A stretch of 64,000 nt of DNA from Eledone cirrhosa (Eukaryota). Of this stretch, positions 1 to 51,293 are shown piece after piece. The stretch lies in the NCBI GenBank assembly GCA_964016885.1, contig OZ024742.1, positions 364,002,001 to 364,066,000 on the forward strand. The letters run 5' to 3'. A program made the translations under genes and the position numbers. A model generated the notes under the pieces. The model was not told the origin of the DNA and ran no database searches. It saw nothing but the letters and a program-made list of their open reading frames with translations. Every line of letters begins with the position of its first letter. Within the stretch, counting starts at the first letter, position 1.

Positions 1-3000
1 GTGTGTAGGAAGGTAAGACACACGTGGATAGCAACACAACAGCCGTGTTATGTGTGTAGGATGGTAAGACACACGTGGACAGCAGCACAACAGCTGTGTT
101 ATGTGTGTAGGATGGTAAGACACACGTGGACAGCAGCACAACAGCTGTGTTATGTGTGTAGGATGGTAAGACACACGTGGACAGCAGCATAACAGCTATG
201 TTATGTGTGTAGGAAGGTAAGACACACGTGGACAGCAGCACAACAGCCGTGTTATGTGTGTAGGAAGGTAAGACACACGTGGACAGCAACACAACAACTT
301 TGTTATGTGTGTAGGAAGGTTGATACACGTGGACAGCAACACAACAGCCGTGTTATGTGTGTAGGATGGTAAGACACACGTGGACAGCAATACAACAGCC
401 GTGTTATGTGTGTAGGATGGTTTAGACACACGTGGACAGCAACACAACAGCCGTGTTATGTGTGTAGGAAGGTAAGACACACGTGGACAGCAGCACAACA
501 GCTGTGTTATGTGTGTAGGAAGATAAGACACACGTGGACAGCAGCACAACAGCCGTGTTATGTGTGTAGATTGGTTAGACATACGTGGACAGCATCACAA
601 CAGCTGTGTTATGTGTGTAGGATGGTAAGACACACGTGGACAGCAACACAACAGTTGTGTTATGTGTGTAGGATGGTAAGACACACGTGGACAGCAAAAC
701 AACAGCCGTGTTATGTGTGTAGGATGGTAAGATACACGTAGACAGCAGCACAACAGCCGTGTTATGTGTGTAGGATGGTAAGACACACGTGGACAGCGAC
801 ACAACAGCTGTGTTATGTGTGTAGATTTGTAAGACACACGTGGACAGCAGCACCACAGCCGTGTTATGTGTGTAGGATGGTAAGACACACGTGGACAGCA
901 ACACAACAGCTGTGTTATGTGTGTAGGATGGTAAGACACACGTGGACAGCAACACAACAGCCGTGTTATGTGTGTAGGAAGGTAAGACACACGTGGAAAG
1001 CAGCACAACAGCTGTGTTATGTGTGTAGGAAGGTAAGACTAACGTGGACAGCAATACAACAGCCGTGTTATGTGTGTAGGATGGTAAGACACACGTGGAC
1101 AGCAACACAACAGCCGTGTTATGTGTGTAGGATGGTAAGACACACGTGGACAGCAACACAACAGCCGTGTTATGTGTGTAGGAAGGTAATACACACGTGG
1201 ACAGCAGCACAACAGCTGTGTTATGTGTGTAGGATGGTAAGACACACGTGGACAGCAGCACAACAGCTGTGTTATGTGTATGGATTGGTAAGACACACGT
1301 GGACAGTAGCACAACAGCCGTGTTATGTGTGTAGATAGGTAAGACACACGTGGACAGCAGCACAACAGCTGTGTTATGTGTGTAGGATGGTAAGACACAC
1401 GTGGACAGCAGCACAACAGCCGTGTTATGTGTGTAGGATGGTAAGACACACGTGGACAGCAACACAATAGCTGTGTTATGTGTGTATGATGGTAAGACAC
1501 ACGTGGACAGCAACACAACAGCTGTGTTATGTGTGTAGGATGGTAAGACACACATGGAGAGCAGCACCACAGCTGTGTTATGTGTGTATGATGGAAATAC
1601 ACGTGGATAGCAGCACAACAGCTGTGTTATGTGTGTAGGTAGGTAAGACACACGTGGATAGCAACACAACAGCCGTGTTATGTGTGTAGGATGGTAAGAC
1701 ACACGTGGACAGCAGCACAACAGCTCTGTTATGTGTGTAGGATGGTAAGACACACGTGGACAGCAGCACAACAGCTGTGTTATGTGTGTAGGATGGTAAG
1801 ACACACGTGGACAGCAGTACAACAGCTGTGTTATGTGTGTAGGAAGGTAAGACACACGTGGACAGCAACACAACAGCTGTGTTATGTGTGTAGGAAGGTT
1901 GACACACGTGGAAAGCAGCACAACAGCTGTGTTATGTGTGTAGGAAGGTAAGAAACACGTGGACAGCAGGACAACAGCCGTGTTATGTGTGTAGATTGGT
2001 AAGACATACGTGGACAGCAACACAACAGCTGTGTTATGTGTGTAGGATGGTAAGACACACGTGGACAGCAACACAACAGCCGTGTATTGTGTGTAGGATG
2101 GTAAGACACACGTGGACAGCAGCACAACAGCCGTGTTATGTGTGTAGGATGGTAAGACACACGTGGACAGCAACACAACAGCTGTGATAAGTGTGTAGGA
2201 AGGTAAGACACACGTGGACAGCAGCACAACAGCCGTGTTATGTGTGTAGGATGGTAAGACACACGTGGACAGCAACACAACAGCTGTGTTATGTGTGTAG
2301 GATGGTAAGACACACGTGGACAGCAGCACAACAGCTGTGTTATGTGTGTAGGTAGGTAAGACACACGTGGACAGCAGCACAATAGCCGTGTTATGTGTGT
2401 GGATTGGTAAGACACACGTGGACAGTAGCACAACAGCCGTGTTATGTGTGTAGATTGGAAAGACACACGTGGACAGCAACACAACAGCTGTGTTATGTGT
2501 GTAGGATGGTAAGACACACATGGAGAGCAGCACCACAGCTGTGTTATGTGTGTATGATGGAAATACACGTGGATAGCAGCACAACAGCTGTGTTATGTGT
2601 GTAGGAAGGTAAGACACACGTGGATAGCAACACAACAGCCGTGTTATGTGTGTAGGATGGTAAGACACACGTGGACAGCAGCACAACAGCTCTGTTATGT
2701 GTGTAGGATGGTAAGACACACGTGGACAGCAGCACAACAGCTGTGTTATGTGTGTAGGATGGTAAGACACACGTGGACAGCAGCACAACAGCTGTGTTAT
2801 GTGTGTAGGAAGGTAAGACACACGTGGACAGCAACACAACAGCTGTGTTATGTGTGTAGGAAGGTTGACACACGTGGAAAGCAGCACAACAGCTGTGTTA
2901 TGTGTGTAGGAAGGTAAGAAACACGTGGACAGCAGGACAACAGCCGTGTTATGTGTGTAGATTGGTAAGACATACGTGGACAGCAACACAACAGCTGTGT

Positions 3001-4320
3001 TATGTGTGTAGGATGGTAAGACACACGTGGACAGCAACACAACAGCCGTGTTATGTGTGTAGGATGGTAAGACACACGTGGACAGCAGCACAACAGCCGT
3101 GTTATGTGTGTAGGATGGTAAGACACACGTGGACAGCAACACAACAGCTGTGATAAGTGTGTAGGAAGGTAAGACACACGTGGACAGCAGCACAACAGCC
3201 GTGTTATGTGTGTAGATTGGTAAGACACACGTGGACAGCAACACAACAGCTGTGTTATGTGTGTAGGATGGTAAGACACACGTGGACAGCAATACAACAG
3301 CCGTGTTATGTGTGTAGGATGGTAAGACACACGTGGACAGCAATACAACAGCCGTGTTATGTGTGTAGGATGGTAAGACACACGTGGACAGCAACACAAC
3401 AGCTGTGTTATGTGTGTAGGATGGTAAGACACACGTGGACAGCAATACAACAGCCGTGTTATGTGTGTAGGAAGGTAAGACACACGTGGACAGCAGCACA
3501 ACAGCTGTGTTATGTGTGTAGGATGGTTTAGACACACGTGGACAGCAACACAACAGCCGTGTTATGTGTGTAGGATGGTAAGACACACGTGGACAGCAAC
3601 ACAACAGCTGTGTTATGTGTGTAGGATGGTAAGACACACGTGGACAGCAGCACAACAGCTGTGTTATGTGTGTAGGTAGGTAAGACACACGTGGACAGCA
3701 GCACAATAGCCGTGTTATGTGTGTGGATTGGTAAGACACACGTGGACAGTAGCACAACAGCCGTGTTATGTGTGTAGATTGGTAAGACACACGTGGACAG
3801 CAACACAACAGCTGTGTTGTGTGTGTAGGATGGTAAGACACACATGGACAGCAGCACGACAGCTGTGTTATGTGTGTAGGATGATAAGACACACGTGGAC
3901 AGCAGTACAACAGCTGTGTTATGTGTGTAGGATGGTAAGACACACGTGGACAGCAGCACAACAGCTGTGTTATGTGTGTAGGATGGTAAAACACACGTGC
4001 ACAGCAGCACAACAGCTGTTTTATGTGTGTAGGAAGGTAATACACACGTGGACAGCAGCACTATAGCTGTGTTATGTGTGTAGGATGGTAAGACACACGT
4101 GGACAGCAGTACAATATCTGTGTTATGTGTGTAGGATGGTAAGATACACGTGGACAGCAGCACAACAGCTGTGTTATGTGTGTAGGATGGTAAGACACAC
4201 GTGGACAGCAGCACAACAGCTGTGTTATGTGTGTAGGACGGTAAGACACACGTAGACAGCAGCACAACAGCCGTGTTATGTGTGTAGGATGGTAAGACAC
4301 ACGAGGACATCGCACTACAC
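1..4320. repeat. 51-bp tandem satellite (~85 monomers in window, runs off left edge)
   Basis: Monomer GTGTGTAGGA(T/A)GGTAAGACACACGTGGACAGCA(G/A)CACAACAGC(T/C)GTGTTAT is repeated head-to-tail. It carries CACGTG in almost every unit and decays at ~4300-4325. Confidence 0.98.
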
Positions 4321-10487: not shown

Positions 10488-10542
<55 letters not shown>

Positions 10543-10547
<5 letters not shown>

Positions 10548-10859
10548 AGGGTGAATATAAAATGAAAGTGCTTTTGTTAAAAAAGGAATTTATTAGGTAT
10601 TGACATATGTTTCTGTAACAGACCGAATACCTATGTATCGCTGCTTGCGTAATCATATAATGTTAGCAAGTATTCGATAGCAAATGTATAATCAGTGATT
10701 AAACAACTGATTATACATTTGCTATCGAATACTTGCTAACATTATATGATTACGCAAGCAGCGATACATAGGTATTCGGTCTGTTACAGAAACATATGTC
10801 AATACCTAATAAATTCCTTTTTTAACAAAAGCACTTTCATTTTATATTCATCCTTTCTA
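10543..10859. repeat. 154-bp near-perfect inverted repeat (PLE-type inverted terminal repeat)
   Basis: Arms 10543-10696 and 10706-10859 with one mismatch seen and a 9-nt loop. Contains the hammerhead 3' half GAAACATATGTC. Starts directly at (TA)n. Confidence 0.9.
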
Positions 10860-10960
10860 CATTTCTCCGGAATATAATTTATACTCGTTGAGCAAACCTG
10901 CACGTACGCTGTTCATCTCTAACGTAACGATATATTATCACTACATTATTGATAACCTGA

Positions 10961-23344: not shown

Positions 23345-25441
23345 TTACCGTACTTTTGGTAGAGGAGGGATGGTTTTTACATCCCTTTTCACTTGATCGT
23401 CTGGTGAAGGGACCGTTGAATCGTCCCTTCGGCTGGTCGTCGGCTCTTCTAAGAGAATGTCTGAATATACTCTTCGATTGATGGTTCCTCCTAGGTCCCT
23501 GAAATCACCAACTGCGTTGGGGAATTTCGTTTTAATGTTTGTGTATTGTTTCTGTGCTATTTTTAGCAGTCTTATGTTAGTTGGCGTTTTGATTGGTGCT
23601 GGTATTATGTAGTCCTGTTGTGAAATGTCTGTGTGTTCAATTATGTAAGTCATTAGTTTCTTGTTGTGTGTGTTTATTGCCGTGCATTTGTTTTTCTGGG
23701 GGTGGGGTGTGGTTCTGCTATTTTCTTGTCGTTGTTGCTGGGTGTGTGTGTTTTGTTGTTGTGTTTGCGATGTTGGTGCTTGTGGTGGTGGTGTTGAAGG
23801 TGTTGTTGGCGGTGGGGTTGTCGCCGGTGGCGATGGTGGTGCTGGTGTGGGTGGTGATGCTGTTGGTGGTGTTGCTGCTGTGGTTCTCTTTGCAGTAGAC
23901 TTTACCCTTTTCTCATTTCTTTCCTCCCTTTTCAAAGGCGACGATTCGCTGCTTCTGCGTTTGTGCCTTCTTGCGACCTTTTGCCATCCCTCTCCCACCT
24001 CACACTCCATGTCTGATTCTGTAAGGTCGGGGAGGGGTACCAGCTCCACTCTTTCACTTGTTGTTGTTGGTGATGTTTGCACTGGAGTCTCTGTTGCAGC
24101 TGCATTTGGTATTGCTGTTGTTGTTGTTAATATTTCCACTGCTGCTGCTGTCTTTGATTTCCGTGGAGTGGGTATGGGTGCCACGGACCTATCGTTCCTG
24201 GTTGCCGCTTGTCCTGTTGCTGGTAGCCGTGGAGCCGGATTCGGAAGGAGGGGGGTTTTCTCCTTTCTCAGGGTCTTCTCGTTGCAGAAGGCCCTGAGGT
24301 GAGTCTTCGATCCACAGCGAAAGCATTTCGGGCGTTTGCCCTCAACACTTATGGGCAGTTGAGTGCCGTTATCGAAGTCTATCACATCCGGGATAGCTTC
24401 GATGCACTCCTGGTTGGTTTGGATTAGCATCTCAATGGAGGAGCCGACCCAATCTTCTCTTACTTTTTTCTGTACTTGCAGTACAGTTGTTTTGTCCTCG
24501 ATTCCGACGAGGACAGACGCGGCCAGCCAAGAAGGGGTCATTCCGGGGGGGACGTGGGTCAGTTTGACCCTCACAATTTTTTGCCCGCAGTAGGAGGGCA
24601 CCAACACCATTTCCTCGCTCCTTAGGGTCACTACTGATTGGGCCTTTGCCTCCTGGGGTGTGGCAAAAAGTACGTCTACGGTGGCGTATTTTTTGCCTCG
24701 GGTGATGTGCGTTTTCCTCTGCCACACAGACCCCAAGGCTTTTTGTATTTGGGCCTCTGTGGCTCTTTCCACCCTACGGGATTTTGTACTTACTGTACGG
24801 TACGTGACCGTACAGTGCTCTTGGGTCTCGAAAAACTTTTCCGCTGCCTTGCAGATTGCTCGGTGTCCGTTCTTTGTCACCATCTTCTTCGCTTCCTCTA
24901 ATTCCTCATTTGTTATGAGGATTGTTTCCAAGTTTTTCGCAATACCTGCAAATGAGATTGGTTTTTCTCTGCTGTTGTTGTTGTCGTCAGAGCTGCTGGT
25001 ACTTTTGTTGCTGCAGGTACTACGACTACTGCCTCCGCCGCTGTTGCTGTGGTTGTTGTTGGTGTTGCTGCTGCTAATGCTGTTGTTGTTTATGCTGCTG
25101 GTGATGCTGTTGCGGCTGCTACTGTTGTTTTCATTGTCACTGTTGCTGTTGTTATTACGGCTGCTACTGCTATTATTCCTGACGTCAGACGAATGAACTG
25201 GGTTTTCGTATTTCCCGCACACCTGTTTCGTCGCTGTCGTCGTCGTCGTGGAGAAACCTTGCACGCTTTGCACGAGACTTTTCTTTTCTTTCGTCGCTTG
25301 CGAAAGAGAAGGGAGGGAGAGAGACACATTTAAAGAAGGGAGGGAGAGAGACAATCTTCTCTCTGCTGTAGTGATGATTGAGGAAGAAGAAGACGGAATG
25401 AGTGGGAGTGACGTATGAAATTTTTTTTTTTTGGTAGCCAT
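23345..25441 (-). CDS. LINE ORF1 nucleic-acid-binding protein (698 aa from first ATG)
   Basis: First ATG (MATKKKK) at 25441. Ser/Asn-rich N-terminus, SFAGIAK, CFRCGSKTHLRAFC knuckle and Pro/Thr-rich region. Lies directly upstream of ORF2. Confidence 0.9.
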   Translation of the reverse strand: MATKKKKFHTSLPLIPSSSSSIITTAERRLSLSLPSLNVSLSLPSLSQATKEKKSLVQSVQGFSTTTTTATKQVCGKYENPVHSSDVRNNSSSSRNNNSNSDNENNSSSRNSITSSINNNSISSSNTNNNHSNSGGGSSRSTCSNKSTSSSDDNNNSREKPISFAGIAKNLETILITNEELEEAKKMVTKNGHRAICKAAEKFFETQEHCTVTYRTVSTKSRRVERATEAQIQKALGSVWQRKTHITRGKKYATVDVLFATPQEAKAQSVVTLRSEEMVLVPSYCGQKIVRVKLTHVPPGMTPSWLAASVLVGIEDKTTVLQVQKKVREDWVGSSIEMLIQTNQECIEAIPDVIDFDNGTQLPISVEGKRPKCFRCGSKTHLRAFCNEKTLRKEKTPLLPNPAPRLPATGQAATRNDRSVAPIPTPRKSKTAAAVEILTTTTAIPNAAATETPVQTSPTTTSERVELVPLPDLTESDMECEVGEGWQKVARRHKRRSSESSPLKREERNEKRVKSTAKRTTAATPPTASPPTPAPPSPPATTPPPTTPSTPPPQAPTSQTQQQNTHTQQQRQENSRTTPHPQKNKCTAINTHNKKLMTYIIEHTDISQQDYIIPAPIKTPTNIRLLKIAQKQYTNIKTKFPNAVGDFRDLGGTINRRVYSDILLEEPTTSRRDDSTVPSPDDQVKRDVKTIPPLPKVR

Positions 25442-26600
25442 GTTTTTTTGTTTAAAATGAAATTTTGGGTACAAAACCCCAATAACTGATTATTTAACCC
25501 CGAAGGGCCAAATAACGGACAGAAAGACCCCTCTCACGAGGAGGAGGGTGTCTTTATCAACAATTTGGTTCAAGTTTTAAACAATTTACAATTGTTTTAA
25601 GGGTTAAAAATTACTATACCTTACAGAGCCGAGCCTCCGTCAACCATGGCATTCAATAATAATAATAATAATAATAATAATAAGGGAAGAAGACGCACGA
25701 GGTGGTTGAACGTCACGAAATTGCTCCCGTAAGTTTTTTTGATTTTTAACATATTTAAATCAATTGTGAAAGAACAATTCTTAGCACAAATGTTGCATAA
25801 AGGCACCGAATGAGGTCCCATAAAGTTTCGGATCCATATTATATTGTTGTATCGCTCAAATATTCAATTTTGTATTATATATTTTGTATTCAAAAAAAGA
25901 AAATGGATATAAATGGAACAAAACACCCTCTGTCTACACTATATAGAACAGCGGCAATTTCAATTTCACCAACACCAGAAACTTGATACACTACCTATCC
26001 CATCACACTAAATATAACGGCAACTTCACCGGCATCATAATAATAATTACTATTATTATTGTCTCAAATTTAAAAAAATGTTTAATTCAAATTTTACGGG
26101 AATATGTCAACACAAAATATAATGAAAATATATATTAAACATACGAACACAAACTCATAGATACTATATCAGTAACCACAACACCACCGCTGCCACCTCC
26201 CCACCACATCCATCATCGCCGCCACCACTCATTCAATGCTACTGACACTATTCCCCTGTTAACTTGAGAGAGAAAAGGGAAGGTGGTGGTAGCACTAGAC
26301 AAGAGAGAGGCTAGCAAAAGATATAAATAGATTGACTTGGTGACCTTGCCACGGACAAACGTCTACATCAACAATTATGGGACTGCTGGCTCACCCCTTC
26401 CTCACCAACAATATAAAAAGCCCCGGCACCACCACCGACATAGCCAGCAGCAATAACAGCCAACTACAACAAAAAGTATATTATATTATTGTAATGCACT
26501 GGGTGATTGCTGGCCTTGTGCCTGGAGTGGAGACGATTATTAATAATTTCATTTTTAAGCCACGCAATGCTCACATTAAGGTACGACTCATGATAATAAC

Positions 26601-29600
26601 AATTTTAAAAAAACAACAAAAAGAAAACCCCGTGACCAAGAAATACCGGGATGGCGGCCGGCGGGGAATAGCCATGTCTCTAGGGGAGAACGACCCCTCT
26701 AGTCTTGGTTGACACTCGTTCTAGAAGTGGTAACACGAAAAGATTACCCCTTGGCGGTTAAGGATAAAACGCGACAAAATAAGGTAGATGTCTAATGATG
26801 AAATCTCATACCGGATCGGCCGTCACCCGGGTAAAAAAGGGCCGCGTCCCTCAGAGAGGAACCAGACTGGGGTCGAAAAATCAGCTAATGGTTCAAACCT
26901 TCCCATCACTTCGGAGCTGGAGACCTCCCATAACCGGAATACTCCTACTGTTGGCCCTCCATGCTCACCACCAAGAAATCCAAAGAAAAAGAGAGAAAAA
27001 TGGTCAAGGGAAGATAATAAAGAAGTCCTTGAGGCTTTCTACACTGCCATGTACTACCCATCAAATACATCGAATACAGAGCAAACATATATCAACTGGA
27101 AAAAGAAACATCCCGAAAACAGAGGCTATATTGACAGTAACAAACTAGCCAATATACGAAGAAATATTGTAAGAAAAAAGTTACTAACTGATATAGAAAT
27201 TGATCAGATCAAGCTAGTAGCACAAAGTCAGCGAAGGGAAAATGAAGCATGTGTCAGTGAAAACGAGGTAAACTGTAACACTTCGAATCCCAGAGTTGGG
27301 GCGGAATCACTGGCAACAGAACAAATTAAAGAAAGGAGCGAAAAAGTGGAGGGAGTGCATGCTCAGGATGAAACTCCAAATGAAAATAATGAGATCGTAA
27401 ATGATAAAGAAATGAATGAGAATGAACTTGCCAACTTGAAGGATGAAATTATGATCGAATGGATGAAAATGAAAGAATCTGACATGGGGGAACGAGACAC
27501 CCTCCCTAAGATCCAGAACTCCAAACAGAACCAAAAGATAATACACAAGACTAACATAATTCTCAAAAACATTATCATCACAAACAAAATAAACATTACT
27601 GACTTAAATCATCTCTATTATGCATCGGCTAAAGTCACCACTCACTTATGTGGAGTGAAGATGAAAAAACAAAGGAATTCCCACAAGAAATCTACTTGGC
27701 AAGATAACATCAATCGCCAAATAAACCTTCTCCGATCTGACATAGAAATTTTAACAAACTATAAAGTAGGTGAACATGTTAAACAAACTAAACTTAGAAA
27801 ATTGAAAAAAAAGTACAGTATAAGATCAACATGTGACATAGACATGCTGATAGAAACAATCAAGCAAAAAGTGTCGGCCAAAGCTGCTCGTATAAGGCGC
27901 TTTGAAAAACGATCTAGATTCTATAAGGACAATATGTTCAAAAACAACCAAAGAAACTTCTACAGAAAAATTGGTAAGTCAACAATAACTGCTAAATCAA
28001 TACCACCCAAGGAGGAAGTGCAAGAATTCTGGGAAAAGATCTGGGCCGAAGAAAAAGTTCATAACATACATGCCCCATGGATAGACAGACAAATGAAAGA
28101 AACAGCTCACCTTGAAGAACAAACATGGGAAAATATAACAGTTGAACAGCTGCGCTTGGCTCTAAGAAAAACCAGCAAATGGAAATCCCCAGGAAAAGAC
28201 AAAATACAAAACTTTTGGATAAATGCCTTCACAGAGTCTCATGAGCTGTTAGCCCAACTTTACAATGAAATAGTTAAGGAGCCAGAAAAGATACCATCAT
28301 GGCTAGTTAACGGCATTACATTCCTGCTACCGAAGAATGATGAGACAAACAATCCCAAAAATTACAGACCGATAACCTGCTTGACCACAATGTATAAAAT
28401 TTTAACATCAGTCCTAACTGAATACACATATGACCACCTGATAACAAATGACCTATTTCCCATTGAGCAGAAAGGGTGTAAACGAGGCTCATATGGCTGT
28501 AAGGATCAACTTCTGGTTAACAAAATGATACTGGAAGATTGTCATAATAGACACAAAAATCTATCGATTGCTTGGATAGATTATAAAAAAGCATTTGATA
28601 GTTTGCCACACAGTTGGATTGAAAAATGTTTAGAGATTTTCAAAATATCCCCCGTTGTCAGGGGGTTTTTGTCATTCAGTATGAGGACATGGAGAACGAC
28701 ACTCCTTTTGAATAGTGAAACAAAATCACTGGAAGCTGGAGAAGTTAACATTAATTGTGGAATTTTTCAGGGTGACTCTTTATCACCGCTTTTATTCTGC
28801 ATCGCACTTATACCATTAAGTAAAATGCTCAATGAAACAAAACATGGATATAGAGTCTATGACAAAACCATTAATCACCTGTTCTACATGGATGACCTGA
28901 AACTATTTGCAAAAAATGATGAACAATTGCAAGGGCTATTATCCACTGTGAAGCAGTTCAGTGATGACATTAAAATGGAGTTTGGACTGGATAAATGCGC
29001 CAAAGCAACGTTCACCAGAGGAAAGCTGCTGAAGAGTTCAGACATTAATCTTGATCGGGGGAACGTGATAAGAGAGCTTGATCAAGAAAAAACTTACAAA
29101 TATCTAGGTGTTTGTGAAGGAGACGGAATCAAGCACTCGACAATGAGGGAAAGGATAAGGAAGGAATGTTACCGCAGAGTCAGAGCAATCTTAAGAACGG
29201 AATTGAATGCAAGGAATAGGATCGATGCCATAAACACGCTTGCCATACCAGTAGTAACCTACAGTTACAATGTCATCAACTGGTCAAGCACAGAGATCCG
29301 TAGGCTCGATACAAAAATCCGAAAATTCTTAACCATGCACAGAATGCATCACCCTAAGGCAGACATAGATAGAATATATCTCCCTAGGAAAGAAGGAGGA
29401 CGTGGGTTAATCCAGTTAGACATTGCGTTGAAAACTGCAACAATTGGATTATCCACATATCTAAGGGAATCACATGATTGGATGATCAAACTCGTTTTGA
29501 AACACGAAAGCACCAAAAGATCATATTCCATTACAAAAGATGCACAAAGATACAGTAATGGACTACAAATTTCAGAAGTCCCATTTACTGCTGAAATGGA

Positions 29601-30576
29601 AAACACAGAAAAAGCAAAGCAGGTAAAAGTAACTGCAAAGAAAGAACTGCTACAGAAACTGGCTAAGAAATGGCAAGAAAAGCCTCTGTATGGAAAATAC
29701 CCAGAGCGAGCTAACAATCCTGATGTTGACAAAACTTTAACCCATCAGTGGTTGGCATCCTCTGGACTGAAATCGGAGACTGAAGGACTGATTATATCAG
29801 CACAAGATCAGTGTCTGCCAACAAAAAATTACCAAGCCAACATAATAAAAAATGGGTGCAGCCCACTATGCCGTGTATGCAAAAAACAACCAGAGACCAT
29901 TGACCATATAATTTCAATGTGCAGTCCTATAGCTCCAACCGAATACCTAAACAGGCATGACAGAGCTGCACAATACATACATTGGATAATGTGTAAGCAT
30001 TTTGACCTGCCCCATCAAAAGAATTGGTGGGAGCATCAACCACCTCCCATACTTGAAAAAGATCACATCTCAATCTTGTGGAACTTTAGCATCCAAACAG
30101 ACCGAAAAATAGATGCAAATAGACCTGATATAATATTGAAGGACTTTCAAAGGAGGGTATGCCTGCTAATTGATATGTCTGTTCCAATAGACAAGAATGT
30201 ATCTATAAAAACATTTGAAAAATTGAGCAAGTATAAGGACCTGGAGATAGAAATTGGAAAAATGTGGAAATTGAGAACTAAAACAATACCAGTGGTTGTA
30301 GGCGCTCTGGGAATGATACCTAAGGGGTCTAACGACTACTTATCGCAAATCCCAGGAAACCCGCGTATAGGAGAAATACAAAAGATAGTACTAATGGGAA
30401 CTGCCCATATACTAAGGAAGATCCTGTCAATATAAGTACATCACAAGTCTAAACACTAAGGATGCATGTGTGAATATGTGTGTTCTTTCTTGAACATGGC
30501 GGACCTTGTTGTCTCTTGAGGTCACTGGTTGTGACTTGGTGATAACTCGTATAAACATAAAGCAAGATAAATGCAA
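26601..30576 (+). mobile_element. R4/Dong-clade non-LTR retrotransposon, family 1 (full-length, intact)
   Basis: Single ORF, ~190-nt 5' UTR and 140-nt 3' UTR. Followed by (AAT)n at 30576-30601, with a degenerate TAA run at the 5' side. Confidence 0.92.
26788..30435 (+). CDS. RT + CCHC + restriction-like endonuclease polyprotein (1215 aa)
   Basis: WKSPGKD, NYRPITCL, DYKKAFD, QGDSLSP, YMDD; CRVC..ETIDHIISMC, RHD, RPDII..LID, K..KYKDL, VVGALG. No APE domain. Confidence 0.96.
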   Translation: MSNDEISYRIGRHPGKKGPRPSERNQTGVEKSANGSNLPITSELETSHNRNTPTVGPPCSPPRNPKKKREKWSREDNKEVLEAFYTAMYYPSNTSNTEQTYINWKKKHPENRGYIDSNKLANIRRNIVRKKLLTDIEIDQIKLVAQSQRRENEACVSENEVNCNTSNPRVGAESLATEQIKERSEKVEGVHAQDETPNENNEIVNDKEMNENELANLKDEIMIEWMKMKESDMGERDTLPKIQNSKQNQKIIHKTNIILKNIIITNKINITDLNHLYYASAKVTTHLCGVKMKKQRNSHKKSTWQDNINRQINLLRSDIEILTNYKVGEHVKQTKLRKLKKKYSIRSTCDIDMLIETIKQKVSAKAARIRRFEKRSRFYKDNMFKNNQRNFYRKIGKSTITAKSIPPKEEVQEFWEKIWAEEKVHNIHAPWIDRQMKETAHLEEQTWENITVEQLRLALRKTSKWKSPGKDKIQNFWINAFTESHELLAQLYNEIVKEPEKIPSWLVNGITFLLPKNDETNNPKNYRPITCLTTMYKILTSVLTEYTYDHLITNDLFPIEQKGCKRGSYGCKDQLLVNKMILEDCHNRHKNLSIAWIDYKKAFDSLPHSWIEKCLEIFKISPVVRGFLSFSMRTWRTTLLLNSETKSLEAGEVNINCGIFQGDSLSPLLFCIALIPLSKMLNETKHGYRVYDKTINHLFYMDDLKLFAKNDEQLQGLLSTVKQFSDDIKMEFGLDKCAKATFTRGKLLKSSDINLDRGNVIRELDQEKTYKYLGVCEGDGIKHSTMRERIRKECYRRVRAILRTELNARNRIDAINTLAIPVVTYSYNVINWSSTEIRRLDTKIRKFLTMHRMHHPKADIDRIYLPRKEGGRGLIQLDIALKTATIGLSTYLRESHDWMIKLVLKHESTKRSYSITKDAQRYSNGLQISEVPFTAEMENTEKAKQVKVTAKKELLQKLAKKWQEKPLYGKYPERANNPDVDKTLTHQWLASSGLKSETEGLIISAQDQCLPTKNYQANIIKNGCSPLCRVCKKQPETIDHIISMCSPIAPTEYLNRHDRAAQYIHWIMCKHFDLPHQKNWWEHQPPPILEKDHISILWNFSIQTDRKIDANRPDIILKDFQRRVCLLIDMSVPIDKNVSIKTFEKLSKYKDLEIEIGKMWKLRTKTIPVVVGALGMIPKGSNDYLSQIPGNPRIGEIQKIVLMGTAHILRKILSI

Positions 30577-30601: not shown

Positions 30602-33600
30602 AACAAAAACAAAAAAAGAAACCCCCAAAACGTAAAGAAAATAAGAATGAAGAGAGAAGCAAGCGGACGGACAGAGAAGAGGGGGGAAAAACTAAAACTT
30701 AAAAAACAAAAACTAAGTCAGATATTCGAACACTACATTACAATGAAACTTATGCTTATTCATTTTTGGGGCCCTTTCTGCCTGTGTGTTTGTTTGTTTA
30801 TGTGTGTTCGTATACAGCGTGGTGATAATGCCACACAAGGGCCAAGTGGGATGGCGGATCCACAGATGGCTATGTAACCATACATTCGCCAATCCTCGAT
30901 AAGAGTGTTTAAATATCGAACATAAACAGTTCGAATAACGGTGAAATGGAGACTAGAACGTTATGTGACAGACTCTCACCCAACAGGTGCCCCTGGCTCA
31001 GCAGCAGGAACCTGACTGTCAACCAAATACTGCTGATGTTGGAGGAAGAAGAAGAAGGAAAGGGGCCATAACCAACTGGACGAAAGAATTGAATAGAACT
31101 GTTATGCAATGCTACCTGAAAAGTAACCCCAAGGAGAGGGGCTACAGGAGACGGATGCATAACATCTGGAACAAGATTGGTTTATTTAAATTAGATGAAC
31201 AAAAATTGGCCGGGCAGGCTCGGGTAATAAGAACTAATGGGTGGATAAGCGAGCTGGAACTGGAGGAACTGAGCAGAGAGAATGGCTTGGAGATGGCGGG
31301 TGTAGTATGCCAGACAAGCGAGCCAGTGGGAAATGAAGGTGAAGAGGTCCTGAGAACGGAGGAACCACCCGAAGCAGACAATGATCTGAATACTGAGATA
31401 AATAATACCTGGAACAGAGATACGGCCACTGAGGAGATGAATGCTGACGGGCTAGGACAAGATTCGGTTGACATCCTAAATTTAGTGGTAGATGAATTGA
31501 ACAATGATAGTGGGAGACCTATGAACCTAAGATTTGTAGACAGGAAAAAGTTAAAAGAAACAACAGCTAAGGTAAACAAAGTCATCCCATACCTTGAGGC
31601 GAGGAGCCTTCACCAGTGCAACAATATCCTCAAAGCAACAGCAAATACGGTGAGGAAACTACTTGGTATAAAAGCGAGAGGAAACAACAGACAAGAAAGA
31701 GCAGAGCCGTGGTGGAAGAAGCGACTGAGTGGGCAAATCGGGGAAATGAGAAATGACATAGGAAAGCTTGAGTCACTACTGAATGGGACACTAAAAAACA
31801 TAGGCACTAAAAATAGACTGGAAATAAAATACAAAACTAGGAGTAAAAAGCTAAATATTATCATAGAGGAATTGAAGCAACGCATTGTAGCAAAGAGTGC
31901 AAAAATCAGGCGATACGAGAACAGAGTCAGTCAGTATAAACAGAACCGCATGTTCGACAACAACCAGAAGATGCTGTTTGGACAGCTTGAGGGGAAAGAA
32001 AGAGGCAACGACTTGATCCCTGGGGCGGAACAAACTAAAACATTCTGGAGAGGAATATGGGAGCAGGATGTTAGACATAATGCCCAGGCAGGGTGGATTG
32101 AGACAGTACAGAGGGAGATCGGTGAGCAGGCACAACAACAAACTGATTTGAGTATCACAGTTGAAACTCTTAAGGGGCAGGCCAAAAAACTAACCAACTG
32201 GAAATCACCAGGCCCAGATGGTGTGCAGGGGTATTGGATTAAACATTTAACATCCCTCCACCCGAAGCTGACGGCCATGTTCAATGACTGCTTGGTGTCG
32301 GGTGAGGTGCCAGAGTGGTTGACAAAAGGTACCACAGTTCTGATAATGAAAGACCGAATCAAGGGTAATGATGTTACCAACTATAGACCTATCACGTGTC
32401 TGTCCGTAATGTGGAAACTGTTGACGAGCATTGTTTCTGAGGAAATCTACCATAACCTCCACACAAACAACTTGTTACCGGACGAACAGAAAGGATGCCG
32501 AAAGAAGTCACGTGGTACAAAGGACCAGTTACTTATTGATAAGATGGTAATGGGGAATTGCAGGAGGAGACACACTGATCTTGCCATGGGATGAATAGAC
32601 TACAGAAAGGCATTTGACATGGTGCCTCATTCTTGGATCACCAAAAGCCTGGAGATCTTCAGGGTGGCAGATAACATCAGACAGTTGCTGGGCAGGAGTA
32701 TGGGGTCCTGGGAGACAGAGTTGACATCAACTGGTGTATCCTTGGGAAGCGTGAAGATCAAGAGAGGTATCTTCCAGGGAGATAGCCTGTCCCCTCTGTT
32801 GTTTGTCCTTGCCCTAATGCCCTTGACCATTATGCTGCGAAAAGTGAGAGCAGGATACAAGTTGGGAAGGGGAGAGCTTACCATCAATCACCTCCTCTTC
32901 ATGGACGATCTTAAGCTCTTCGGGAAAAGTGAGAAGGAGTTGGATGTGCTTGTTGACACTGTCCGTATTTTCAGCAGTGATATATGTATGCAGTTTGGTA
33001 TTGGTAAATGTGGAGTCATTGTGATGAGGAGGGGTAGGTTGAGCAGAAGTAGCGGGATCCAGATACCAACAGGTGAGATGATAAAGGAAATTGACTCTGA
33101 GGAAGGATACAAGTATTTGGGCGTTCTGGAGGCTGATGGCATAAAGAACAAAAACATGAAGGAATTGTTAAGAACTGAATACATTCGGAGAGTAAGGAGC
33201 GTATTAAAGTCACATCTGAACAGTAGGAATGCCATAAGCGCAGTAAATTCCAGAGCTGTGTCTATTATTAGGTACAGTGAGGGAATTCTGAGATGGAATG
33301 TTGCTGAACAAAAAGAAATGGATAGGAAGACTAGGAAGCTATTGACTATCTACAACATGTTCCACAAGAGGAGTGATGTCGATAGACTCTACCTAAGGAG
33401 ATCTGAGGGTGGAAGAGGTCTTATCAGCATAGAGGACTGTGTTCAGATGGAGAAAAACAACCTATACAAATACGTGACCTATAGTAAGGAGCCAATGCTC
33501 AAAACTGTACTGAAGGAGGGGACAGTAGGCCAGGGGATGTCCAAGGAGGAAATAACATCAAGGAGGAAGAGCAGCCTTAAGGGAAAATCCCTTCATAGTA

Positions 33601-50679: not shown

Positions 50680-51293
50680 GGTGGCTGCCAACTCGTTTTC
50701 GAGTACGGCCACTACTTTTATCCATGCAGGAGAACCACTACCCATGTGGTGAACAAGTGTGACATTTTAGTCCAGCCAGCGATTTGAAAACTCTGGTACA
50801 AACACTACACTTGTGACAATTATTGACACATAGTGCTGGGCCCATGGTACCATCTGACGACAAGTGCATAGAGATCAGAAATCAACAAATATAAAGCAAT
50901 GCCTGTGCCGTGAAGCTTTTATAGTGAGCAAAGGCATTGCACAAAGCCAGTCCCACTCTCTTAACCAAGATGATATTTACCAAAAAGAAGAACAAATCAA
51001 CATCATTGGATACCATCAGAGTTGCAGATGTTATATCAGAGTTTTCCTTCTCCTAGAAATCTGCCTTGACAAAGGCTAAGGGGTCATCTCTCCCGGTGCT
51101 TTTGGATGGCCATTGACTCTTAAAAGCTCCTTTGCCCCTTGACAGGTTTTGTTATTAGTCCTGCAGGATGTCCAAAGTCACTCTCCTCACCAAGAAACCT
51201 TGGTGGGGTTGCCAGTTTAGTCGCCAACGATCCGACCATGGGACAGGTTGTACTGTGATACATGTTACCAGTAGCACCAACTGGTGACCTGGC
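50680..51293 (-). mobile_element. Relic of an RTE-like retrotransposon 5' region between (TA)n tracts
   Basis: The minus strand has 'ggcgactaaactggcaacccc' and 'tctaggagaaggaaaactctga', motifs I recall from RTE-clade 5' UTRs. No intact ORF follows. Confidence 0.5.

Follow-up and report, generated by a model that had tools for sequence, protein, structure and literature searches.

The window, a 64,000-nt stretch of Eledone cirrhosa DNA, contains Dong1, a non-LTR element of R4/Dong type whose leader, as the homology evidence supports, holds at 26683-26722 a copy of the conserved leader domain of RTEs. The fold predicted for this segment is a compact RNA pseudoknot, a model that is very probably right and that we infer to hold in cells. 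Because many short copies of related elements begin exactly at the front edge of the knot, the best explanation of its function is a roadblock to 5′-to-3′ RNA decay, to which we give a probability of roughly 0.4. What analysis of the sequence delivers directly is the homology, the covariation, the internal position of the module, its retention in Dong1 and in a third Dong family, Dong3, and the way in which the 5′ ends of non-autonomous RTE elements pile up at the base of the first stem (S1). The element that hosts the module comprises:

25684..26787, + strand: Dong1 5′-UTR, 1104 nt, with 14 upstream ATGs; a (TAA)n tract precedes its start
26788..30435, + strand: Dong1 ORF, 1215 aa, with RT, CCHC knuckle and PD..D nuclease motif

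Dong1 shows the R4/Dong features of a single ORF with RT, CCHC and RLE and of a (TAA)n target; we take the clade name from these features rather than from a tree against named references. R2 proteins are the closest solved structures to the ORF product, and the family is young and abundant (1521 candidates, with 99-100% identity in the best 40 of the 1521). Dong2 begins with the same terminus and shares about 320 nt of leader at 75%, and the two proteins are 35% identical. The motif flagged by an earlier, sequence-only reading of this DNA is internal to both leaders: the element start lies 964 nt ahead of it in Dong1 and about 980 nt ahead of it in Dong2; since Dong1 starts at 25684, the motif does not lie at its 5′ end. 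A rearranged leader with breaks at -823 and -833 recurs in six of 30 position-ordered Dong copies (L264, L268, L271, L276, L280 and L286). Dong1 and a minus-strand APE element stand head to head with a TAA tract between them, and the Dong 5′ terminus (25684-25990, + strand) aligns with the leader of this adjoining element (25350-25660, - strand; 0 of 500 shuffles). Elsewhere, the window contains a tandem array of 51-nt units at 16-4300, in which about 79 matches overlap and the minus strand stays open over 1161 codons, and a near-perfect inverted repeat at 10540-10862, with arms of 157 nt and a spacer of 9 nt.

The sequence-only reading had proposed one structured RNA motif common to Dong1, Dong2 and an RTE-like relic, and the segments that it quoted are indeed found where it placed them. 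The alignment of Dong1 (26664-26745) with the RTE segment (51113-51036, - strand) clearly beats shuffled controls (its local score of 45 compares with a mean of 27.3 for shuffles and is reached by 2 of 2000 of them, p 0.001), and this segment is the top non-self tile for Dong1 within the 64-kb window. Dong1 and Dong2 do have in common the words GGGATGGCGG...GCYATGT, but their similarity alone stays within chance (p 0.42; in a retest, 166/1000 and 74/1000 shuffles were as good), and a shuffle test found no similarity above chance between Dong2 and the RTE segment (p 0.94). Thus, one motif spanning the three segments does not exist as written: it is 26683-26734 of Dong1 that matches the RTE segment, and 26646-26677 that matches Dong2. 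The pairings proposed in that reading mostly lack support, and two of them were dropped because paired changes are absent from both. The GACCAAGA/TCTTGGTT complementarity is present and mostly recurs in Dong3, and it competes with a hairpin, P3, that does covary; the CCCCG/CGGGG pseudoknot has no support from covariation. The fold is other than the one proposed, and what stands is that a structured RNA module is shared by R4/Dong-type and RTE-type elements, as covariation, a model built from foreign sequences and Dong3 indicate. Its predicted parts in Dong1 are:

26683..26697, + strand: predicted stem S1, GGGG (26683-86) with CCCC (26694-97), enclosing the S2 5′ strand AGAACGA (26687-93)
26702..26713, + strand: predicted hairpin P3 in loop 3, GUC/GAC (GCC/GGC in RTEs, AUC/GAU in Dong3)
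26716..26722, + strand: S2 3′ strand, UCGUUCU, 7/7 pairs
26723..26734, + strand: purine-rich 3′ box of RTEs, here in degenerate form

The topology predicted from homologs is that of an H-type pseudoknot, with an S1 of 4 bp, an S2 of 7 bp and a hairpin in loop 3, and Dong1 forms 14 of its 14 pairs. Homologs were collected with a pattern that specified only the 3′ box and put no constraint on what lies upstream, which gave 120 metagenome loci; many of them carry tandem 71-nt units, and two precede long APE-RT ORFs. There were 54 non-redundant units, 22 of which were omitted from alignment A1 (10 first-unit variants whose 5′ half differs, together with partial units, units with insertions or deletions and duplicates of the two window elements); A2 comprises 24 metagenome units and A4 has 25 rows. 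In the 24 units, which come from other animals, 93.7% of the cells of the full pseudoknot pair and 10 of 18 pairs have changed on both sides (0/500 shuffles); once Dong1 and Dong3 are added, double changes affect 11 of 14 pairs (again 0/500 shuffles, in a control that takes no account of relatedness), and controls slid out of register are at most 44% paired. Alignments of 34 and 25 rows give covariation similar to that of the 24-unit set. RNAalifold, run on a sequence-only alignment of the 24 units, recovers S2 and P3 unaided. In A4, the five variable S2 pairs rank 4, 6, 10, 12 and 20 of 2865 column pairs and the S1 and P3 pairs rank 43-935; in A2, S1 ranks 607-2139 and only one predicted pair falls within the top 15. 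Since column-pair ranks are high for S2 and low for S1, we regard S2 as firm and S1 as probable.

A covariance model built from the 24 foreign units gave two significant matches out of the four window hits listed, the short RTE element (3e-10) and Dong1 (6e-4), whereas a sequence-only profile found the former (E 3.7e-9) and missed the latter. In 664 kb of the 3-Gb Eledone cirrhosa genome, a pairing descriptor matches only Dong1, and nothing in three shuffles. Contigs of run X1 list only two variants within the module, A26689G and T26720C, which together make up one base pair. By inspection of the published text available, S2 pairs 7/7 in AviRTE, OegopSINE, RTE-1_NV and Ingi-3_AC. The 3′ box is conserved in sequence and weakly paired (helix 4, 85.5% paired). 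Minimum-energy folding of single strands, with a tool that cannot form pseudoknots, gave neither Dong1 (z -0.16) nor the RTE segment (z +0.94) a better energy than shuffles. Rfam has no match for the module, and viral contigs returned three pattern matches devoid of the upstream fold and no Dong relative. In the leaders of autonomous RTEs (L148, L147, L124, L136), the tandem modules are preceded by what may be another set of knot and hairpin, about 60-130 nt ahead of the first box.

Does the module extend to other Dong families? Dong3, an older family with about 50% protein identity, carries it at the matching place in both leaders available (2 among 20 loci), and its base changes are compensatory, preserving S1, S2 and P3. 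For Dong2 the case is less well supported, and two segments come into consideration:

30846..30891, + strand: Dong2 candidate knot, GUGGG/UCCAC, UGGCGGA/UUCGCCA and AUGG/CCAU; same topology, divergent
26646..26677, + strand: weakly supported upstream Dong hairpin or small knot, CCGG/CCGG and AUGGC/GCCAU, which resembles the start of the Dong2/Dong4 knot

The candidate knot begins at GGGATGGCGG, the word flagged by the sequence-only reading, and would make Dong2 the bearer of a divergent knot of the module topology. However, 36 of 2000 shuffles also yield pairing of this kind, 16 of 42 Dong2 copies have a broken P3 and the relative L361 has no S2 partner; the 24-unit covariance model misses the Dong2 knot as well as eight Dong4 leaders (8 among 20 loci). 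Dong4, a relative of Dong2, has S1 changed to CCGG/CCGG and S2 to GGUGA/UCACC, has a competing hairpin, and matches the start of the module of the short RTE element in 18 of 20 bases (E 5e-4). Compared with Dong4 and with contigs of runs X1 and X4, Dong2 of this genome is one base short near 30990, which puts the ATG at 30946 in another frame than the long ORF; the window copy also bears an in-frame stop at 32592-32594; the family nonetheless has about 1000 young copies.

The second module of the window lies in the short RTE element:

50680..51293, - strand: bipartite RTE non-autonomous element of about 610 nt (RTE leader, C-terminal zinc-finger remnant and tail), young, within (TATG)n/(TA)n
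51036..51096, - strand: module copy, in which 51096-51092 (CCGGG) is the 5′-end pile-up site of other copies

Described earlier as an RTE-like relic, 50680-51293 is, judged by its sequence matches, a bipartite RTE non-autonomous element, RTE-derived and not Dong-derived. Its 5′ part matches the leader of the APE-RT element L226 (E 7e-17) and its 3′ part the zinc-finger end and tail of the same element, with no Dong1 or Dong2 sequence at E 0.05, which bears out the origin that the sequence-only reading had given it. The RTE label comes from PMC5786205 and from end features, not from a tree. The family is young and high-copy, and 30 of 30 fetched best copies cover one interval. Its majority S2 carries mismatches, and Dong1 pairs better. 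Other short RTE families of the same genome (L035, L056, L091, L060) have a longer S1 loop and possibly an extra stem, UCAC/GUGA, before S1.

The strongest clue to function is where copies of this element end. Among the first 100 matches listed there are 39 distinct loci with a flanking microsatellite at most 30 nt from the module, and 37 of these 39 start inside CCGGG, the five bases at the front edge of the knot (CCGGG 14, CGGG 6, GGG 6, GG 3, G 8, further upstream 2). Removal of near-tandem duplicates leaves 34 of 36 loci among the matches listed starting there. Reverse-strand rows, one per locus, number 1226 for the knot edge against 347 in downstream and 390 in upstream control windows, an excess of about 20-fold per base that is to be read knowing that ends close to the anchor are somewhat easier to catch. 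Among 27 unselected copies of the short RTE element whose 3′ end is present, 8 span the full length, and of the 19 truncated ones 3 start at -3..0. A second family has 6 of 13 rows starting at the knot edge, the remainder being internal matches, and a short family from metagenome contigs starts at the first G, with 24 of 28 loci preceded only by (GT)n, unshared DNA or the contig end and the other four sharing the tail of another repeat before the module. The published consensus of RTE-5_PSi, in the text available, likewise starts at the knot edge (PMC5786205). Several metagenome RTE copies (L102, L107, L116, L137, L145, L208 and others) instead begin where the purine box follows the knot on its 3′ side, and a 13-nt duplication accompanies some of them; in this set, biased by the search pattern, the starts possibly mark a reverse-transcriptase stall.

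Might these starts be inherited rather than made anew? About half of the 14 CCGGG starts among the matches listed have a common TAT junction and could come from a single truncated master. It is very unlikely, in our view, that the fold is real but the pile-up reflects a few such masters or an internal start of transcription, with the module serving otherwise, for instance as a promoter element. The common TAT junctions would fit, as would a 3′ box that is conserved in sequence and weakly paired, and Kojima has suggested that the domain binds a regulator (PMC5786205, text available in part). However, there are at least five junction classes at the 5′ ends, with varied extra bases; the paired changes indicate RNA; and the short element has a run of five Ts (T5) further downstream, which speaks against Pol III. 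A tRNA-like or Pol III promoter reading was rejected for its poor B box and T runs. In a tree of 20 short and 40 long copies the two kinds interleave (14 changes against a shuffled mean of 16.9) with no separate short clade, although the family is star-like and the tree weakly resolved, leaving the comparison little power.

On the roadblock reading, a 5′-to-3′ exonuclease would stall at the base of S1 and so make ends there, while the downstream coding region and the 3′ end would survive the loss of the leader. DNA copies agree in part: ends gather at the base of the first stem in non-autonomous families and not in Dong. Dong1 has no pile-up at S1 (2 of 13 loci within 3 nt), Dong2 has no clear one (6 of 17 loci within 8 positions), and autonomous metagenome RTEs show no clear excess of starts at the knot edge. 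The absence of a Dong pile-up means that the reading needs the extra assumption of a cis preference: the protein of an autonomous element would take its own intact mRNA, leaving no pile-up, and non-autonomous RNAs would be picked up later, some already trimmed.

A pile-up confined to RTEs could instead mean that the LINE protein binds the module and that this binding sets the timing of the second-strand steps, with insertion sometimes ending once the knot is copied. A precedent is the 5′ RNA of R2, to which the R2 protein binds and which controls cleavage of the second strand (bioRxiv 2023.04.07.536001, available text), and such a site would account for retention in bipartite RTE elements (PMC5786205, in the available text). 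Yet Dong proteins are RLE-type, with a nuclease unrelated to that of RTE, and the fold is kept with compensatory changes; nor do autonomous RTEs show a clear pile-up. We consider this improbable. A function independent of the protein, such as a decay roadblock, fits because both APE and RLE elements retain the module.

The same retention by elements with unrelated proteins would suit a knot that aids internal ribosome start, or re-start behind a long leader, non-coding copies keeping it so as to stay near ribosomes making LINE protein. In Dong1 the S2 3′ strand ends 66 nt before the ATG, behind a leader of 1104 nt with 14 ATGs, none of them between the module and the ORF; the spacing is similar in Dong3 and Dong2/4, and RTE modules precede APE-RT ORFs. 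Retention in non-coding elements and tRNA-headed SINEs argues the other way, and the pile-up of 5′ ends would be left unexplained. A role in translation is rather unlikely as the explanation, and it and a roadblock can both act.

The edge is sharp, as a slow self-cleaving ribozyme of a new class cutting just before S1 would produce: of the 39 loci among the matches listed, 14 begin at the first C and not one begins at the base preceding it. The helix order of the module resembles HDV without P3, and silkmoth Dong and R4 have 5′ HDV-like ribozymes, that of silkmoth Dong being terminal (PMC3774820, available text). Against it, of 30 position-ordered Dong copies 16 reach full length and a single one begins within 30 nt of the motif, 8 of 27 short elements are full length, and SINE heads survive upstream of the module in the published descriptions available; we judge it most unlikely. 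Efficient self-cleavage is excluded because full-length copies exist, and no known core is present. A terminal HDV-like ribozyme was rejected because the module lies about 1 kb inside the Dong leader. The HDV core (P3/L3, P1.1 and the catalytic C of J4/2) is absent from Dong1 and the short RTE element, and a descriptor run without a positive control had no matches in the window; the core words of hammerhead, twister and pistol were not found, and Rfam offered none. The sequence-only reading had likewise failed to fit HDV, twister or hammerhead; its suggested 5′ processing ribozyme is unlikely for a module that is internal and that most copies run through.

How much of this was known? Contrary to the label of uncharacterised, the sequence domain had been published: Kojima (2018) described a conserved domain in the middle of the 5′-UTR of RTE LINEs, also found in one R4 element, and the available text proposes no structure (PMC5786205). 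It reports the domain in R4-1_ADi and Ingi-3_AC, also as tandem copies, and its retention in non-coding elements and tRNA-headed SINEs whose heads survive upstream. The short RTE segment matches the published OegopSINE/RTE text, in the part available, by inspection; Dong1 joins this domain (RTE 5′UTR, or Ceph 3′ half) through the structural model only (E 6e-4), and it too lies in mid-5′-UTR ahead of an ORF. No pseudoknot in the RTE leader domain was found in the openly accessible papers searched, and the available text of PMC13708176 and PMC7245038 gives no structure for it. The module is thus partly known: the sequence is, and the predicted fold, its retention across Dong families and the end pile-up are new.

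Why do RTE-derived SINEs, from squid to birds, retain one piece of the RTE leader? This question, open in the available text of PMC5786205, becomes testable with a 40-nt fold that has a defined edge. A broader proposal, which we hold doubtful, is that one mobile pseudoknot able to block nucleases is common to the non-LTR clades RTE, R4/Dong and Ingi and to many SINEs, is swapped between clades, and does on chromosomes what exonuclease-resistant RNAs (xrRNAs) do in viruses; it would set the 5′ boundary of promoter-less elements and explain why RTE-derived SINEs keep the leader. If decay is blocked, this would be an xrRNA outside viruses, a kind not found in the literature searched, and a candidate 5′ module for RTE- or R2-based gene insertion, where 5′ stability of the template limits yield (PMC11331408, PMC13708176, in the text available).

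Set against the published RTE 5′-UTR domain, the module has the same sequence family, mid-UTR position and tandem copies, and adds a covarying pseudoknot, retention across Dong families and the 5′-end pile-up (PMC5786205, available text). The xrRNAs of plant viruses, in the text available, stop Xrn1 at the base of P1 and can precede ORFs (PMC6299227), and viral xrRNAs occur in tandem, as RTE modules do. Like those of dianthoviruses and poleroviruses, the module is a pseudoknot of about 40 nt with little sequence conservation, which can lie before an ORF and at the first-stem base of which ends gather, here those of DNA copies of non-autonomous families; it also has the covariation-supported pseudoknot expected of an xrRNA, strong in S2 and thin in S1. 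It differs from them in secondary structure (here with a hairpin in loop 3), in having a retrotransposon as host, and in a resistance that is here only predicted (PMC6299227). With the HDV-like ribozymes of R2, R4 and silkmoth Dong it shares being a pseudoknotted leader RNA of non-LTR elements, with S1/S2/P3 in the order of P1/P2/P4 (PMC3774820, in part); unlike them, it lacks P3/L3, P1.1 and the J4/2 cytosine, is internal rather than terminal, and leaves most copies uncut. R2 templates are used more when they carry a stable 5′ fold, an effect that needs no catalysis and that suits the roadblock reading (PMC11331408, available text). The R2 5′ regulatory RNA resembles the module in position and kind, since both are structured 5′ RNAs that lie close to where the ORF of an RLE element begins (bioRxiv 2023.04.07.536001, available text); the module also occurs in APE elements.
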